Made by a program: the position numbers and the translations under genes. Shown in pieces: positions 3,224 through 9,889 of a stretch of 10,205 bases of DNA. Numbering within the stretch: the stretch's first letter is position 1; each line of letters starts with the position of its first letter. The notes beneath the pieces were generated by a model. The model worked only from the letters and a program-made list of their open reading frames with translations. It was not told where the DNA came from and made no database searches. Source of the DNA: a virus (Duplodnaviria > Heunggongvirae > Uroviricota > Caudoviricetes); IMG/VR virus record IMGVR_UViG_2917886563_000001; one strand, given 5' to 3'.

Positions 3224-3854
3224 TAAGTACCTCACCAAAGCTGTTTACTGCAAAGGTGGCAGTGATAGTGGAGCAAAAGCGAGTGCACGCGCAACGGAAA
3301 AAGGTATCGATCTACAGCGCGAAATGTGGCAAACGAACATGCAAAACCTTGCACCGTTCACGCCACTCGCTCAGCAGTATGTATCACAGTTGCAGAATCT
3401 TTCCTCACTTCAGGGGCAAGGGCAGGCACTTAACCAGTATTACAACTCCCAGCAGTACAAAGACCTGGCAGGTCAGGCGCGTTACCAGAGCCTGGCAGCA
3501 GCAGAGGCAACGGGTGGATTAGGCTCTACGGCAACCGGAAACCAGTTGGCAGCAATCGCACCTACACTCGGTCAAAACTGGCTGTCAGGTCAGATGAACA
3601 ACTACAACAATCTGGCAAACATTGGCCTTGGTGCTCTTACAGGTCAGGCAAACGCCGGACAGAACTATGCCAACAACGTCAGTCAATTGTATCAACAGCA
3701 GGCGGCAGCATCTGCGGCTAATGCAAATAAACCATCAGGATTTCAGAGCGCCCTTGGTGGAGCGGCGGCAGGTGCAGCTGCAGGTACTGCAATCATGCCT
3801 GGTTGGGGGACAGCAATTGGTGCTGGCGTAGGACTTCTTGGTTCACTGTTTTAA
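3201..3854 (+). CDS. Ejection (E) protein, P22 gp7-like
   Basis: The 217-aa ORF has an SD-like GAGGAA 7 nt upstream of ATG 3201 and overlaps the preceding gene by 23 nt. Its composition is Gln/Asn/Gly/Ala-rich low complexity with a C-terminal hydrophobic Gly/Ala-rich segment (GGAAAGAAAGTAIMPGWGTAIGAGVGLLGSLF). This, together with synteny, is typical of P22-family ejection protein gp7. Confidence 0.7.
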   Translation: MLIFQIANKYLTKAVYCKGGSDSGAKASARATEKGIDLQREMWQTNMQNLAPFTPLAQQYVSQLQNLSSLQGQGQALNQYYNSQQYKDLAGQARYQSLAAAEATGGLGSTATGNQLAAIAPTLGQNWLSGQMNNYNNLANIGLGALTGQANAGQNYANNVSQLYQQQAAASAANANKPSGFQSALGGAAAGAAAGTAIMPGWGTAIGAGVGLLGSLF

Positions 3855-3866
3855 TGGAGGTGTCTC

Positions 3867-5261
3867 TTGGCTACATGGCAACAGGTTGGTAATTCAGGCG
3901 CTCTTCTTGCCGGGTTGGGCGGCATGAACTCCAACGCTCCAGGAGCAAGTGATGCAGACGCCACGCTTGCATACATTCGACAGAATAACGAGATGGAGCG
4001 TTCAGGACGTAATAACGTTGGCTTGCGGGCTTTGCAGGGCATTTCATCTGTCATGGATATGTATAAGCAGATGGATCAGCAGAAGCGACAGCAAGAGTTT
4101 CAGCAGGCTTATGCTGATGCATATACATCTGGTGACCGCGATGCCATGCGAAAACTGGCATCACAGTATCCTGAGCAGTTCGACGTTGTAAGAAACGGCA
4201 TGAAATTTGTCGATGAAGACCAGCGTACTACTGTCGGTACACTGGCAGCAAGTGCCAGACTCGCAGGTTCATCTCCAGAAGCCATGATGTCATGGCTGCA
4301 GAACAACGCATCTGAGCTTTCTCGCGCCGGAGTAGACCCTCTGGATGTGGCGAAAATGTATCAGCAAAATCCACAAGGTTTCACAGAGTTTGTTGATCAC
4401 CTTGGAATGGCTGCACTTGGACCAGAACAATATTTTCAGGCACAAGACAGAATCGTTGGTCGTGAGATTGACCGTGGAAAACTTGCAGAGGCAATCCGCA
4501 GCAATCAGGCTGGCGAAGCACTAACTGCTCGTGGTCAGAACATCACTATGCGCGGTCAGGACTTATCTGCGTCTACTGCGCGACGCGGTCAGGATTTGGC
4601 AATGCAGCGAGCGTCAACAAGAGGAACCGCTGGGAATGATGAGCGTACAGTTCAGTTATCAGATGGCAGAACTGTAACGGTAGGCGGGAAGCTTCACGGC
4701 GCAGGGGCTAATGCGTTCTACGAAGGCATCGACAACGAGGGGAATATGGTTCGCGTTCCTGCCAGTTCAATCGCAGCGCCTGCAACATCGTCTGCATCAG
4801 CACAAAACTATGCCATGAAGAAGGATATCGACGCGATCGCAAATGCAGACGCTTCTGCTCTCGATTTTATGACAGGAATGACCGGCGGTGCAGGTAACCC
4901 GGCAATTGGTGCTGATGTTCGCAGCCGATTAACAGGAAAAGAGCAGCGTCAGTTATATAACTCAGCACAACGTATTCAGGGAAGAATGCAGAATCAGGGC
5001 GTGGCGGCAGCAAGGGACATGGGCGCCAGTGGTATTAACACCGTTGCAGAAGCGAAGATGTATTTTCAGGGGATGCCGCAGGTTGACTACTCAAGCCCGG
5101 AGGCTATGCAGCAGTCGATTCGTGAGATTCAGGAATACACCAACAATTACAACCAACAATATAACGTTAATGTTGGTAAATCTCAGCGGCAGCAATCTCA
5201 ACCTGCACAGGTATCACAGCCTGCAGCCAGCAGTAACTTTTCTTCACTATGGGGTGATTAA
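3867..5261 (+). CDS. Ejection (E) protein, P22 gp20-like; apparent TTG start
   Basis: The 464-aa ORF has no in-frame ATG near its 5' end. The first codon is TTG at 3867-3869, with GGAGG at 3856-3860 six nt upstream. Length and position match P22 gp20 (about 470 aa). Confidence 0.7.
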
Positions 5262-7564
5262 TGGCTAAAGCATGGAAAGATGTTATCGCCTCTCCACAGT
5301 ATCAGGCGTTAGCACCAGAACAAAAAGCGCAGGCTCAGGAGCAATACTTCAATGAAGTCGTGGCCCCGCAAGCCGGAGAAAATGCAGAGCAGGCTAAGCA
5401 AGCTTTCTATGCTGCCTATCCATTGCCATCTGTGCAGACAGAACAGCAGGAAGTAAGGCAATCTCCTGATGCCATTCAGCAAGACAAATCACTTATGCAG
5501 CGTGCAGGAGAATGGCTAACTGGTGGGCAAAGCGTAGGACAAATTGCCGAGCAGGCGGTAAGAGGATTTGTAAATATTCCTTTTGACGTTCTTCAGGGGG
5601 GGGCGAGTCTCATTAATGCTGCATCTCAGAGTTTTGATGGACCAAAGATTCTTGATGAAGTATATAGACCAGTTAACCGGCCAACGGATCCGTATGCGCA
5701 AGCTGGAGAGTCAATAGGCGGTTATCTTGTTCCTGGAGCAGGTGTAGCTGGAAACATGGTCATTGGTTCTCTCGCTGACGCGGCGAATCAACAGGGGGAT
5801 TTTGCCAAAAATACCGCTATTAATGCCGGACTTAACATTGCTACGCATGGCCTGATAAATGGCGTTACCCGTGGTGTTCGTGGCGCATCAAATATAATTA
5901 GTGGTAATAAAACATCTACACAGAGAGCGACCCCTGCGCCAACAGAAACATCACCATTCTCCGGTGATGCCACTGCAGCAACAAATCCTGCGGTTCATGC
6001 CGCAGAGGCAAGAGTAGCACAAGGTGTACCAATGACGCCTGCGACGAGCAACCCAGAGGAAGTCGTTCGCACAGTTGCTGCACAAAAAAGGCCAAATCTC
6101 GCTTCATCGCTTGATGAATTAGATATCAATCCTCAGGCTGAAGTTCTGGAGTCTGCTGAAAAGCTTAATGTTGATTCATTACTCCCTTCACACTTTTCCG
6201 GGAACGAGCAATACAAGGCTGTTGAGCAAGCAATCAAGTCCCGTGCGGGTTCTGCTCTACAGGTGCAGGAAAATGAAGCAATCAGGCAGCTAGCACAGAG
6301 CGCGGGGAAGATAATTGATCGCGCTTCCGGTGCAAAAGATGCTCTTGGTATGAGCGACAAGTTTATTGATACGGTCAATGGAAGAATGTCTGCCCTGATG
6401 AAACGAAGCGACCAGCTTTATCGCAATGTTGAAAAGGCGATGCCTGCAGGTGCAAAAATTGATGCGCCATCAACAAGGTCAATGCTCAAACAGGTGGCAG
6501 AAGATCTTGGCGGGATGAAAAACCTTGACCCTATTGAAAAGAGAGTCTTTCAGGCAGTTAATCCAGGCAAGAACGGCGCATTAACTTATGCAAATCTCAA
6601 TAAGCAACGACGACTTGTTGGTGATGCACTTCATAAGAATTCTGGACCATATAAAGATGCTGATCGCGCTGCCTTATCGAGGCTTTACGGTTCGCTCGCC
6701 GATGATCAAAAGACGGCGCTGTCAGGGACAATTGCATTACGTGATTTTGAAGTTGCTCAGAGGCTTGTTCAGATGCGAAAAAGTATGGAAGAGCAAATGA
6801 TTAATCTTACTGGCAGAACGCTGAACGGTGATGTTTCTCGCAAAGCAACGACAGCACTACAGGCAATGTCGAAAGGCGATGCCAAAGGATTCCGTGAATT
6901 GATGCAAAACACGCCGTCCAGGAAGCTAAGAACCGAGCTACTGGGAACAGGTCTTCGGGATATGCTTTCGAACGGAAAACGTGGTGCTGATTTTAATCCT
7001 GCAGGGTTTGCTGACTGGTATCAAAACATGTTAGCAAACGGACAAATGCGAAATCTTGCCCGACATTTACCAAAAGAGACTATGTCAGGTCTGAACGATG
7101 TATATAAGGTCGCAAAGGCTATCAAAGACGCAAAATCTTACGAGATAACCACAGGAAGACTAAACGAGTTCGTCAAACGGTTTAATCGTGTCACTGTGGC
7201 AAATGAATTTGTTGCTAACCATGCCCAACGCATTGGCACTGCGGTTGGTTCAACGGTGTCAGGACCGTTCAGTGCAGTAGGTGCTGTTGCTGGGTCAGAA
7301 ATTGGGGCAAAAGTCGCCAGCAAAATCAGGGCGATGGGCGGCGCTGCATCAATGGAATCTGCAGAAAAGCTAATTAGCTCACCAGAATTCCAGAAAGCAG
7401 CAAGGCTGGCAGTAAAACAAGCACCAGAAAGCATCGTTGATACAACTGTAAGACGCTCTTCTGCTTGGCGCTCGTTTTACAACTCACTTCCAGAATCAGA
7501 TAAGAAAACCATATCAAGGCTAGGCATCATGTACTGGATGAACAGTGATGACAACCAGAAGTAA
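5261..7564 (+). CDS. Ejection (E) protein, P22 gp16-like (larger than the P22 prototype)
   Basis: The 767-aa ORF is coupled to the preceding gene by a TAATG overlap at 5259-5263. It is largely Ala/Gln/Lys-rich and apparently helical, and it is the last gene of the ejection-protein block before the mnt/tailspike region, as in P22. Confidence 0.7.
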
Positions 7565-7581
7565 CGGAAAGCCACGGATGG

Positions 7582-7845
7582 TTAGTTGCAGTCTTTTTTA
7601 TATAAATCTCTGAGCGTATCAAAGACAATTTTCTTTACCATATCGGATTGTTGGTCTGCAATACGCTCAGCATCGTCATTGTAAAAAGATGCAGTGCTTT
7701 GTTTAGCCAGTGATTCTTCAATCGCTGCAATTATCTCTGAGTTCAGTGACCTGTTATTCATCTTCGCACGCTGCTTAATTTTGGTGTGGAGTTCATGCGC
7801 AAGTCTCAAATGAAACTGCGCTTCGTCGTATTTGCTGTACATCAT
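7582..7845 (-). CDS. mnt: Mnt-like ribbon-helix-helix (Arc/MetJ family) repressor
   Basis: The translation MMYSKYDEAQFHLRLAHELHTKIKQRAKMNNRSLNSEIIAAIEESLAKQSTASFYNDDAERIADQQSDMVKKIVFDTLRDLYKK aligns along its full length with recalled P22 Mnt (FNFRMPMEVREKLKFRAEANGRSMNSELLQIVQDALSK...NDAERLADEQSELVKKMVFDTLKDLYKK). I favour the start at the Met pair at 7845/7842 because GGTGAGG lies 5 nt upstream on the minus strand. The ORF track's longer form, starting at 7875, has no SD and adds 10 residues absent from P22 Mnt. Confidence 0.85.
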   Translation of the reverse strand: MMYSKYDEAQFHLRLAHELHTKIKQRAKMNNRSLNSEIIAAIEESLAKQSTASFYNDDAERIADQQSDMVKKIVFDTLRDLYKKDCN

Positions 7846-7963
7846 TGATGCCTCACCAGTTGGGTGGAACGGCATCGTAACCTACTGGATAAATACTCAA
7901 TAGTACCATTTAGGTATTCAATAATATCAAAATTGAATCATATCCTTCCTCTGGAGTTACAAA
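7846..7963. promoter_or_regulatory. Divergent intergenic control region between mnt (-) and tailspike (+); candidate Pmnt and operator
   Basis: This 118-bp AT-rich spacer separates divergent start codons. It contains short dyads: AATAC...GTATT (7892-7918) and TTCAAT-9nt-ATTGAA (7917-7937). The tailspike SD, GGAG, is at 7953-7956. No strong sigma70 consensus could be pinned down by eye. In P22 the Mnt operator overlaps Pant, but the operator sequence here is not the P22 one. Confidence 0.35.
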
Positions 7964-9889
7964 ATGTCAGATATCGCCGCAAATGTTGTGGTAAGCATGC
8001 CTAGCCAATTGTTCACTATGGCTCGTTCTTTTAAAACTGTATCAAATGGCAAAATCTTTATTGGTAAAATAGATGAAGACCCAGTAAATCCTGAAAACCA
8101 GATTCAGGTTTATATTGAGAATGAAGACGGATCTTACGTTCCTGTTGCGCAGCCTATCGTGATAAATACCGCTGGATATCCGGTATACAACGGACAAATT
8201 GCGAAGTTCGTAACTGTGCAAGGCCATTCTATGGCTGTGTACGATGCGTATGGGGTACAACAGTTTTATTTTCCGAATGTGCTTAAATACGACCCGGACC
8301 AATTTAAAGGTCAATTGCTAAGCGATAATCACTCTCTTGGTGATTCATTAGTTATGCACAATCCACAATTCACCGGGTCAACATCACTCCCTTTAGCCAA
8401 TAAATTGACTGTTGATGTGCGAACATTATCAGATTATGGATTTAAGGCTGATAACAGCGGAGCACAAAACAAGGCTGCATTCCAGAAAGCCATTGATGAT
8501 GCTACGTTGCCAACGGAGATTGTTATCCCTGAAGGGACGTTCATTATTGACCCTGGTATAACGATTAAAAATATTGTCACCATGATACGAGGTGCTGGCG
8601 CATATCAGTCCAGAATCTTCTCTACTGGAACAAACGAACCAATCATAACCCAGCAAAGCGACCCAATTACTTTCTGTGAGCTTAGAGACTTTGGCTTAGA
8701 TGGTAATAATTACTCAGCTAATGGGATAAATTTTCCTAACGCCAACCATATCAAAATTGAAAATGTAGATGTAACCGGCACTACAAGTAACGCTATCTTA
8801 ATTAATGGTTACTCAATAGATATAATTGGCTGCCGTTTGCTAACAAACACAGGAAATGCGCTTAACATTGGTGGGGTATGTAATAATCTTAACATCATCA
8901 ATAACCGTATTTATGGTAATGGTGCTGGAGGCATCTTGCTTACTCCGGCGTATGCCGAGGGCGGTATGAGCGTCCGTGTAAACGGAAATGATATTGAGCA
9001 AAATAAGTTATACGGGTTTATGTCATTCGGGGTTAAGGGACTTAATTTGGATGATAACTATTGGGAGCGTAACGGCGAAAGTGGATATCCATATGGTACT
9101 CCGGAATTTATAAACATTAAAGCCGATATTCATCTCATTGCTAATGAGTTTACATTAATACCTGACGTAACAAAGATTAATGATACAGTTTCGATTCGAG
9201 GAAACCAGCAAACTGCAATCGGTTACGCCAGTTCCCTCCCTAATCAGGATGGTTTTATATTCACAAACTATGCTAAAAACCTGACAATCGAAAATAATCA
9301 ATTATTGGATGCATCTAAAGTAAACAATTTATTGGTAATGTACCGTAATAATCTTTCGTCTAAAGTTACAGATAGATTGTATCTGGCTAACAATACGGTC
9401 AATTCGATAGGGTATGTTGGAAGTTATGATCCAGCGACACAAAACCCTGATACTGCTCATTTAATAGATATTGCGAACAGAGAGTTAACTGCTAACTATC
9501 TTGATCGAAATATGTTGCTTTGGAACGCGGCATCTGGAACGACAGGAGCATTGATAAAAACTCAAAACATTTATGCTGGTAATTATTCATTCTTAGTTAC
9601 GGCAGGAGATAGAGTTTGGGGACGAACGATAGACCTCAACAAATCACCAGAACTAAAAGGGAAATTTGTATGGTTTGGTGCGTGGGTAAATGACCAGGGA
9701 GCAGCGTCAAAACTTATGTTTATAGTTAATGGTGCAGGACAAACAGACTCTACAGCACCTTTAGCTGGGAATGGGAAATGGCGCTATGTTAGTTGTGGTG
9801 TGTATATAGACGCAACGGCTACAGCTATAAATGTTGGCATAAGAAATTATGGTTCAGGAAATGTACTCATAAACTCACCGTTGATGTAG
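7964..9889 (+). CDS. Tailspike protein: P22-family head-binding N-terminal domain plus divergent right-handed beta-helix receptor-binding domain (probable O-antigen or capsule depolymerase)
   Basis: Residues 1-114 ([57 protein letters not shown]...[15 protein letters not shown]...[10 protein letters not shown]) match the recalled P22 gp9 N-terminus and resemble Sf6/HK620-type N-termini. The rest is rich in Asn/Gly/Ile beta-helix rungs (e.g. [29 protein letters not shown]) and does not resemble the P22 endorhamnosidase body. Confidence 0.9.

Follow-up and report, generated by a model that had tools for sequence, protein, structure and literature searches.

In phage P22 the immI region consists of mnt, the promoters Pmnt and Pant with the operators Oarc and Omnt, arc, sar and ant, in this order. 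Knight and Sauer reportedly found in 1989 that residues His6, Asn8 and Arg10 of P22 Mnt contact DNA. Mnt is also said to exert a positive effect on P22 Pmnt, which Vershon et al. reportedly explained in 1987 as relief of competition from Pant. The region has been named the 'ant moron' by Villafane et al. (2008), who distinguished 10 region types in 16 genomes (PMC2629481). Simpler forms have been published: the phages ST64T, ST104 and Para1 hold only mnt and one unknown gene in the region (PMC2629481), and a mnt-only form has been described for phage L (bioRxiv 10.1101/2020.10.05.325894).

We analyzed a 10,205-nucleotide stretch of viral DNA (the window), which comes from the late operon of a P22-like (Lederbergvirus) phage and covers its distal end. 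Homologues of P22 gp7, gp20 and gp16 are encoded in it, and downstream of these lies the gene for a tailspike that has the P22 head-binding domain. Like P22 immI, the locus studied here is placed between gene 16 and the tailspike gene, and the two share a CAAT box, which in P22 is the -35 of Pmnt, and the columns of an operator-like dyad. Unlike P22 immI, it lacks arc, ant, Oarc, sieA and orf59a, no sar remnant was found in it, the strong Pant is not conserved, and mnt faces the tailspike gene directly.

Layout of the locus and its distribution

The gene 16 homologue (5261-7564, plus strand, stop codon 7562-7564) encodes the DNA-ejection protein and is the last late gene before the cassette; residues 77-209 of its product are 74% identical to residues 53-189 of P22 gp16 (E 7e-63). 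The tailspike gene (7964-9889, plus strand) begins with the ATG at 7964, preceded by the ribosome-binding site GGAG at 7953-7956, and encodes a P22-type head-binding domain (Pfam match with E 4e-64) and a beta-helix. The only gene between the gene 16 stop and the tailspike ATG is mnt (7582-7842, minus strand, 86 aa, stop codon 7582-7584), which is divergent from the tailspike gene. The convergent stop codons of gene 16 and mnt are separated by 17 nt (7565-7581), as the preliminary description had stated. This gap contains neither a terminator nor a small ORF, and the minus-strand fold at this position has a z-score of -0.79.

Two consecutive start codons, ATGATG, are available to mnt. The first lies at 7845; the second, at 7842 (MYSKY..., 86 aa), is the start kept in Sf101, VSe13 and the RefSeq annotations. 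The divergent spacer of 118 bp given in the preliminary description holds from the ATG at 7845 and becomes 121 bp from the conserved start. The ribosome-binding site GGTGAGG (7851-7857, minus strand) falls in a block conserved in an alignment of eight sequences (A4: the window, Sf101, JEP4, VSe13, ST160, Gally, P22 and epsilon34), and it appears to overlap the 3' arm of a small leader hairpin, CACC...GGTG. A mechanical extension of the ORF up to an ATG at 7875 is not credible: the equivalent ATG is out of frame in phage Gally, and the one at 7875 falls within the candidate -10 of the mnt promoter, which also argues against the extension.

The product matches the Pfam families Repressor_Mnt (PF11423; E 7e-15, 54.8 bits against a cut-off of 20.9 bits) and Arc-type ribbon-helix-helix (PF03869; E 8e-13, 48.4 bits against a cut-off of 20.4 bits), as well as the P22 Mnt structure 1MNT (E 3e-19, residues 6-79) and the Mnt tetramerisation domain 1QEY (E 2e-9) in the PDB. 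It qualifies as a member of the Mnt family and is predicted to consist of an N-terminal ribbon-helix-helix and a C-terminal tetramerisation helix. The protein is 50% identical to P22 Mnt, with which it shares both domains. Its residues Gln9, His11 and Arg13 align with His6, Asn8 and Arg10 of P22 Mnt, and two of these three recognition residues differ between the proteins.

The preliminary description had read the locus as mnt without arc, ant or sieA, and our searches for remnants bear this out. A permissive tblastn search of the window (E up to 50, word size 2), with the P22 proteins Arc, Ant, SieA and orf59a as queries, recovered nothing above chance level other than mnt itself, the single Arc match, and no Ant match is better than E 0.1 anywhere in the window. 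P22 immI DNA gives only chance-level matches of at most 14 nt with blastn-short, and a search of Rfam (E up to 1) for known RNAs gives no match in the window, where there is also no ant start with which sar could overlap. The mere 46 bp between the putative operator and the tailspike ATG leave no space for arc. Three features of a P22-type immI (arc downstream of the operator, ant, and a strong Pant overlapped by the operator) were thus looked for in the window and not found. In the Sf101 genome, too, no ant is annotated.

The same layout, gene 16 - mnt - tailspike gene, is present in Shigella phage Sf101, coliphage IME10 and a prophage of E. coli W. These share with the window the Mnt class (86% identity), the operator and the 121-bp spacer, and differ from it at the level of alleles (~90% DNA identity). 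Sf101 also shares the 17-nt gap to gene 16 and is 90% identical to the window over 1 kb, whereas loci of the E. coli W type carry a 25-aa ORF after mnt that the window lacks. In RefSeq the mnt gene of Sf101 is mislabelled as 'partition protein ATPase', and we found no mention of mnt, immunity, antirepressor or orf14 in the Sf101 paper. The region is matched by 284 of 5426 complete E. coli genomes; most of the E. coli matches listed extend over mnt, the spacer and the beginning of the tailspike gene, and the window-type end of gene 16 is included in 19 of them. Among the 80 closest loci in IMG/VR, gene 16 is directly convergent on mnt in 79, a head-binding tailspike gene is divergent from mnt in 78, and the spacer is exactly 121 bp in 61, with Arc, Ant and SieA found in none of the 80. 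A mnt gene divergent from the tailspike gene without arc or ant also occurs in JEP4, VSe13, Gally, vB_EcoP-720R6, ST160 and SE1.

The Salmonella phages ST64T, ST104, L, SE1 and ST160 resemble the window: their mnt is not accompanied by arc or ant, a spacer of ~135 bp separates it from the divergent tailspike gene, the spacer backbone is the same, with a TAnGAT -10, Pant is absent, and the corresponding position holds a perfect dyad. They differ in the specificity class of Mnt (QFNLRL with AAGACCAC-N-GTGGTCTT) and in retaining one or two additional genes (orf64/orf62, orf59a) in the interval from gene 16 to mnt, which contains no gene in the window. The window is therefore a more reduced form than the mnt-only moron of the ST64T/L type. 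The mnt-only layout is common, conserved and already described in P22-related phages, and the form in the window is an ordinary one. This does not sit with the picture of a peculiar, stripped-down immI drawn in the preliminary description, given that the layout is widespread and under selection, and that mnt-only forms have been published (PMC2629481; bioRxiv 10.1101/2020.10.05.325894).

Putative operator and promoters in the spacer

In alignment A4, all eight sequences share an invariant CAAT box, which forms the -35 (TTGAGA) of the annotated Pmnt in P22, and, following it, a dyad whose CC and GG occupy identical columns. The preliminary description had suggested searching the spacer for the dyad that Mnt recognises; in the alignment, the putative operator of the window is GTACC-ATTTA-GGTAT at 7903-7917. 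This dyad, with its centre at 7910, takes up exactly the alignment columns of the annotated P22 mnt operator; a single base separates it from the Pmnt -35, and the tailspike ATG follows 47 bp downstream. The window and the 38.7-kb genome of Sf101 each contain one RTACC-N5-GGTAY motif, against an expectation of ~0.04 per 10 kb; no further site with up to two mismatches was found in the window, and no second site in the Sf101 genome. The half-sites are constant across loci, and variation is seen in the central five nucleotides (ATTTA, ATTTC, GTTTC or GTCTC).

Comparison of the dyads with the recognition strands of the corresponding Mnt proteins separates three classes. In the P22 class, the recognition strand HFNFRM goes with the dyad AGGTCCAC-G-GTGGACCT. 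In the class of ST160, SE1 and Gally, QFNLRL goes with AGACCAC-N-GTGGTCT. In the class of the window, QFHLRL goes with RTACC-N5-GGTAY. As judged from these sequences, the dyad appears to change in step with the recognition strand of Mnt, which points to at least three matched specificity classes occupying the same position. The window and P22 accordingly differ in operator sequence (RTACC-N5-GGTAY against GGTCCAC-G-GTGGACC).

The candidate Pmnt of the window (7874-7900, minus strand) has the -35 TTGAGT at 7900-7895 and the -10 TACGAT at 7879-7874. It is the positional counterpart of the annotated P22 Pmnt (TTGAGA-17-TATCAT), and the same position is taken by TTGTTG-17-TACGAT in JEP4 and VSe13, TTGAGG-17-TAAGAT in Gally and TTGTGG-17-TATGAT in ST160. 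The candidate is weak: with 8/12 matches to the consensus and a 15-nt spacer it stays under the 9/12 threshold of our promoter scan. The consensus scan of positions 6600-8100 found no site in the mnt-tailspike spacer reaching this threshold, and no terminator-like site was found on either strand of the same interval. A relaxed scan returned only weak candidates, the candidate Pmnt and a rightward ACGGCA-17-AATACT.

The P22 Pant (TTGACA-17-TATATT) matches the consensus at 11/12 positions, while the aligned hexamers in the window read ACGGCA...TAAATA and lack the -7 T. The Pant hexamers are degenerate in every mnt-only phage, with the -7 T missing in all, and no rightward promoter is conserved in position across the spacer types of Sf101, JEP4, ST160 and Gally. 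The conclusion of the preliminary description that this Mnt has lost its canonical target is thus upheld: there is no ant, and P22 Pant has no counterpart in the window. A spacer backbone, GATGCCTCAC...GGCATC, is common to all mnt-only phages and distinct from that of P22. Sharing this non-P22 backbone, the mnt-only phages therefore form an old lineage and are not recent deletion derivatives. We had considered GATGCC-N18-GGCATC as a leader RNA hairpin and dropped it, one of its arms being the -10 of Pmnt, upstream of the transcription start.

Directly upstream of the tailspike ribosome-binding site, the inverted repeat ATTCAAT-N9-ATTGAAT (7916-7938, plus strand) forms a hairpin with a computed folding energy of -4.7 kcal/mol in the window. 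Sf101-type loci have ATGCAAT...ATTGCAT at this hairpin, a compensatory G-C for U-A. Leaders of the P22 type have a different hairpin at the same place.

Taken as a whole, the locus is probably a minimal mnt-only 'ant moron' of a P22-like Escherichia prophage, in which Mnt would regulate itself through the dyad and the tailspike gene would be expressed by read-through. Mnt would be made in the lysogen from Pmnt, and its tetramer would bind the putative operator GTACC-N5-GGTAT, the centre of which would lie at about -46, just upstream of the Pmnt -35, with no competing rightward promoter. Because of this position and the lack of a rightward promoter, the local effect of binding would be regulation of mnt's own leftward unit and not an antirepressor switch. 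The direction of the effect on Pmnt could be activation, repression or nothing. The relief of Pant competition invoked for P22 cannot apply in the window, because there is no Pant-like promoter there. The tailspike gene would most likely be expressed by read-through of the late operon across the antisense mnt, a route favoured because no terminator or credible promoter intervenes. Occupancy of the site 47 bp upstream of the tailspike start by Mnt would then be incidental.

Selection on mnt and on the spacer

The mnt ORF is intact in all 138 window-class loci that we retrieved. Some contigs were retrieved twice, which makes counts of distinct sequences the safer figures: over 59 distinct alleles of equal length the pooled pN/pS of mnt is 0.17, and in the 17 comparisons with the window listed it ranges from 0.11 to 0.36. 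The DNA-contacting N-terminus of Mnt is essentially unchanged across the window-class loci. In a set of 68 distinct sequences of identical layout, nucleotide diversity is 0.054 at third codon positions of mnt and 0.017 at first and second positions, and in the 75 bp of spacer nearest mnt, which hold the promoter and the operator, it is 0.014; close relatedness among the sampled loci restricts the power of these conservation statistics. The regulatory half of the spacer is constrained as much as the replacement sites of the gene. The mnt gene is under purifying selection and is maintained as an intact repressor gene.

These data bear on the view that mnt is a decaying, functionless remnant caught between two essential genes. 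The window has neither a target nor cargo for it, and the authors of the phage L study raise the same possibility for the mnt-like gene of L (bioRxiv 10.1101/2020.10.05.325894). The uniformly intact ORF, the low pN/pS, the nearly invariant N-terminus, and operator half-sites and a promoter-side spacer more conserved than synonymous sites all speak against decay, and we consider it highly improbable. Autoregulation, which the preliminary description had proposed as possibly the only activity of Mnt, is plausible as such, since an operator counterpart stands at the P22 position. As a sole role it does not hold up: mnt is clearly constrained and self-regulation alone is without obvious value, so a further function must exist.

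One candidate for such a function, also put forward in the preliminary description, is that Mnt gates transcription into the tailspike gene. It could do so from an operator lying over the start of a remnant Pant promoter or as a roadblock, with the tailspike gene either repressed in the lysogen or tuned in lytic growth. A possible influence of Mnt and Arc on read-through transcription of the tailspike gene has been suggested by Villafane et al. (PMC2629481). The putative operator sits where the P22 mnt operator covers the start of Pant, the weak candidate ACGGCA-17-AATACT (7/12, and 8/12 in Sf101) occupies the Pant-equivalent place, and a tailspike gene always follows directly on the mnt-operator unit, regardless of the other contents of the region. 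The spacer, however, contains no promoter that passes the scan, and the degenerate Pant hexamers of the mnt-only phages leave no positionally conserved rightward candidate. The 46 bp of spacer nearest the tailspike gene have a diversity of 0.034 and evolve ~2.4 times faster than the 75 bp nearest mnt. In JEP4-type loci, moreover, only a truncated form of the original tailspike start remains, and the real gene is found at a distance of more than 300 bp. With the proposal finding no support in the conservation of a rightward promoter, gating of the tailspike gene seems quite unlikely, and we retain self-regulation of mnt with read-through into the tailspike gene as the preferred reading.

Antirepressor modules, small ORFs and the role of Mnt

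Several loci carry a separate, complete module beside a window-class mnt (L141, L130, L188, L206 and L217, L015 of Citrobacter and L016 of Serratia). The module contains another ribbon-helix-helix repressor gene (mnt'), an Arc-like gene and one or two antirepressor genes; downstream of it come the window-class mnt with its operator and the tailspike gene. One of the module antirepressors shares 85% identity with P22 Ant. Every module is equipped with a strong promoter and a palindrome of its own, GTATG-N7-CATAC, GGTTCTAGAACC or ATGACATCA-N3-TGATGTCAT. No window-class dyad was found in the promoters of the co-resident ant operons, and window-class Mnt therefore does not control the antirepressors of the same region. 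A near-match, GTACCTAAATACTAT, overlapping the -10 of the L141 ant promoter was set aside as chance, being absent in L188, L217 and L130. The preliminary description had raised deletion of arc and ant from this locus, to be judged by comparison with related prophages. The co-occurrence with a complete mnt'-arc-ant module makes 'P22 immI minus arc and ant' too simple, as does the distinct backbone that the mnt-only phages share.

The separate modules also bear on a possible role of Mnt outside its own locus, in which the Mnt of the prophage would repress antirepressor promoters with the same operator in superinfecting or co-resident phages and so protect the lysogen from induction. P22 Mnt does so for the resident prophage (PMC11016777). 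The three or more matched Mnt/operator classes found here, together with further Mnt'-like classes elsewhere, amount to the diversification expected of an immunity determinant, and purifying selection acts on a cassette without a local target. Against such immunity in trans, RTACC-N5-GGTAY, a motif of only 10 specified bases, precedes arc or ant in 0 of the ~140 window-class loci retrieved, to which, with Sf101, the search for ant operators extended. Antirepressor operons of the same region use other repressors and other palindromes, and the genome of Sf101 offers no second site. A scan of viral contigs with CAATNGTACCNNNNNGGTAT gave many chance matches, true P22-like loci numbering 56 of 120. 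The Arc alignment intended as a seed had no block conserved enough, and ant-linked operator classes were therefore sampled narrowly. We regard immunity in trans as the main role of Mnt as unlikely.

A further reading turns the history of the region around. The Mnt-operator unit beside the tailspike gene may be an old, ant-independent module with diversifying specificity classes instead of a remainder of immI, and its role in the lysogen would be to gate tailspike transcription or to give immunity in trans. The mnt-arc-ant arrangement of P22 would then be derived, produced by insertion of arc and ant in the interval from the operator to the tailspike leader. We hold this only tentatively and think it on the whole unlikely. 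Our preferred reading remains the mnt-only moron in which Mnt regulates its own leftward unit.

A small ORF was observed beside gene 16 in many relatives. In 91 of the 138 window-class loci, a hydrophobic ORF of 25 aa (MQRDMLNIAFYIFGFCTFLVFAKLF) follows mnt and abuts the gene 16 stop, the gap between the two genes being longer. Its ATG is preceded at 4 nt by the ribosome-binding site GGAGG, its pooled pN/pS is 0.23 (32 DNA variants), and it carries no annotation in E. coli W. An HMM built from the variants of the ORF finds matches beside gene 16 in Gally (E 1e-17) and VSe13 (E 3e-9), and none in the window, P22 or Sf101. It also matches a 23-aa ORF of phage BTP1, likewise beside gene 16 (MERDLLNFVFLIFGLVVGKLLFA; NC_042346, 14011-14082, minus strand) with E 2e-4 among 7584 six-frame segments. 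The BTP1 ORF falls inside STnc6030. Owen et al. attributed superinfection exclusion to this RNA and described it as long, antisense and non-coding (PMC7067206). SNPs that allow escape from STnc6030 alter residues close to the C-terminus of the gene 16 product (PMC7067206), and SieA escape mutants map to the C-terminal regions of gp16 and gp20. The small peptide and not the RNA may be the exclusion factor of BTP1.

BTP1 is like the window in that a leftward unit, which in BTP1 is expressed in the lysogen, occupies the interval from the tailspike start to the 3' end of gene 16. It is unlike the window in lacking mnt and the operator and in having the small hydrophobic ORF. The likeness allows a reading in which the leftward transcript is itself the product, running antisense into the 3' end of gene 16 and excluding related superinfecting phages, as has been proposed for STnc6030. 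No intrinsic terminator follows mnt, and the leftward RNA of the BTP1 lysogen, at the same genome position, confers exclusion (PMC7067206). The BTP1 RNA, however, holds the conserved small ORF, which is possibly the exclusion factor and is absent from the window. Escape through single amino-acid changes in gp16 would also be hard to square with a long perfect duplex, and purifying selection on the Mnt protein would be left unexplained. We downgraded the antisense-RNA idea for the mnt transcript once a coding ORF was found in the BTP1 precedent, and we now see little chance that it applies.

For the self-regulating mnt-only moron, the relatives of the window offer a context. In most of them the leftward unit or its flank carries cargo: the 25-aa membrane peptide, a protein of 161 aa in O26 strains, or orf59a in SE1. 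Such cargo would be expressed from the prophage and would give the regulator a purpose there. The window, like Sf101, holds the regulator only. For a mnt gene without cargo, the likeliest candidate for its payoff would be action in trans on matching operators of other phages.

The window itself shows an ordinary variant of a region whose rapid variation among P22-like phages has been known since 2008. The peptide within STnc6030 of BTP1, which lies outside the window, may matter more than the finding in the window. The comparison brings out three points: Mnt homologues adjacent to the tailspike gene fall into at least three matched protein/operator specificity classes, they are kept by selection without an antirepressor to control, and they can adjoin a separate, complete antirepressor module. 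Together, these points raise the testable question of what purpose an orphan Mnt serves.

Tailspike leader and start codon

The tailspike leader of the window contains a hairpin, ATTCAAT-N9-ATTGAAT (7916-7938), directly upstream of the tailspike ribosome-binding site. Its counterpart in Sf101-type loci reads ATGCAAT...ATTGCAT, which constitutes a compensatory pair, whereas P22-type leaders carry another hairpin in its place (CCGTAGC-CAT-GCTGCGG). A second leftward promoter-like site on the minus strand overlaps the tailspike start codon (window 7942-7970; CTGACA-17-AAGGAT, 8/12); the version found in Sf101 and E. coli W is CTGACA-17-AATGAT (9/12), and P22-type leaders, in contrast, lack the site. 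A transcript from this candidate promoter would traverse the putative Mnt operator at approximately +17 to +32.

Two IMG/VR loci carry, just past the first ∼5 codons of the tailspike gene, an inserted gene for a 166-179-aa HNH-type endonuclease that is read from the opposite strand (L021, 2869-3369; L033, 2830-3369). The tailspike frame picks up again downstream of the insertion, at or near its own start, and the tailspike N-terminus in the insertion-bearing loci looks split or duplicated. A gap of 654 or 727/728 bp was found in 12 of the 80 closest IMG/VR loci.

Mosaic joints, antirepressor modules and Mnt labels

The Escherichia sp. E1V33 locus is 98.6% identical to the window in mnt and the tailspike gene and 97.8% identical in the gene 7/gene 20 region. 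Flanked by these near-identical regions, its gene 16 is a different allele from that of the window (window 5441-7574). Since the match extends to both sides of a differing gene 16 allele, we place mosaic joints at the stop of mnt and within gene 16.

In some relatives, the tailspike-adjacent mnt shares its region with a second, complete antirepressor module consisting of a repressor, an Arc-like gene and Ant: L141 (7309-10000), L130 (6053-8172), L188, L217, Citrobacter L015 and Serratia L016. These modules have their own palindromic operators, GTATG-N7-CATAC, GGTTCTAGAACC and ATGACATCA-N3-TGATGTCAT. L141 also carries a two-gene pair of toxin-antitoxin-like appearance at 6419-7296.

RefSeq phage records name Mnt homologues, P22 Mnt itself among them, 'partition protein ATPase' (NC_027398, Sf101; NC_002371, P22; NC_011976, epsilon34; NC_014900, ST160; NC_011802, SE1). 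This label is a propagated misannotation.

A small hydrophobic reading frame beside gene 16

A conserved, unannotated ORF encoding a hydrophobic peptide of 23-25 aa abuts the gene 16 stop on the opposite strand. Preceded by a strong ribosome-binding site (GGAGG), it was seen in 91 of the 138 related loci, with pN/pS of 0.23, and is missing from the window gap at 7565-7581. Copies lie at ∼3409-3486 (minus strand) in E. coli W (L011), 4800-4895 in L007, 4644-4739 in L006 and 14011-14082 (minus strand) in BTP1 (L222, NC_042346). The BTP1 copy is located within STnc6030, published as an 'antisense ncRNA' that gives superinfection exclusion, from which mutations in gp16 allow escape (PMC7067206). 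The true exclusion factor in BTP1 may be the peptide encoded by this small ORF rather than the STnc6030 RNA.
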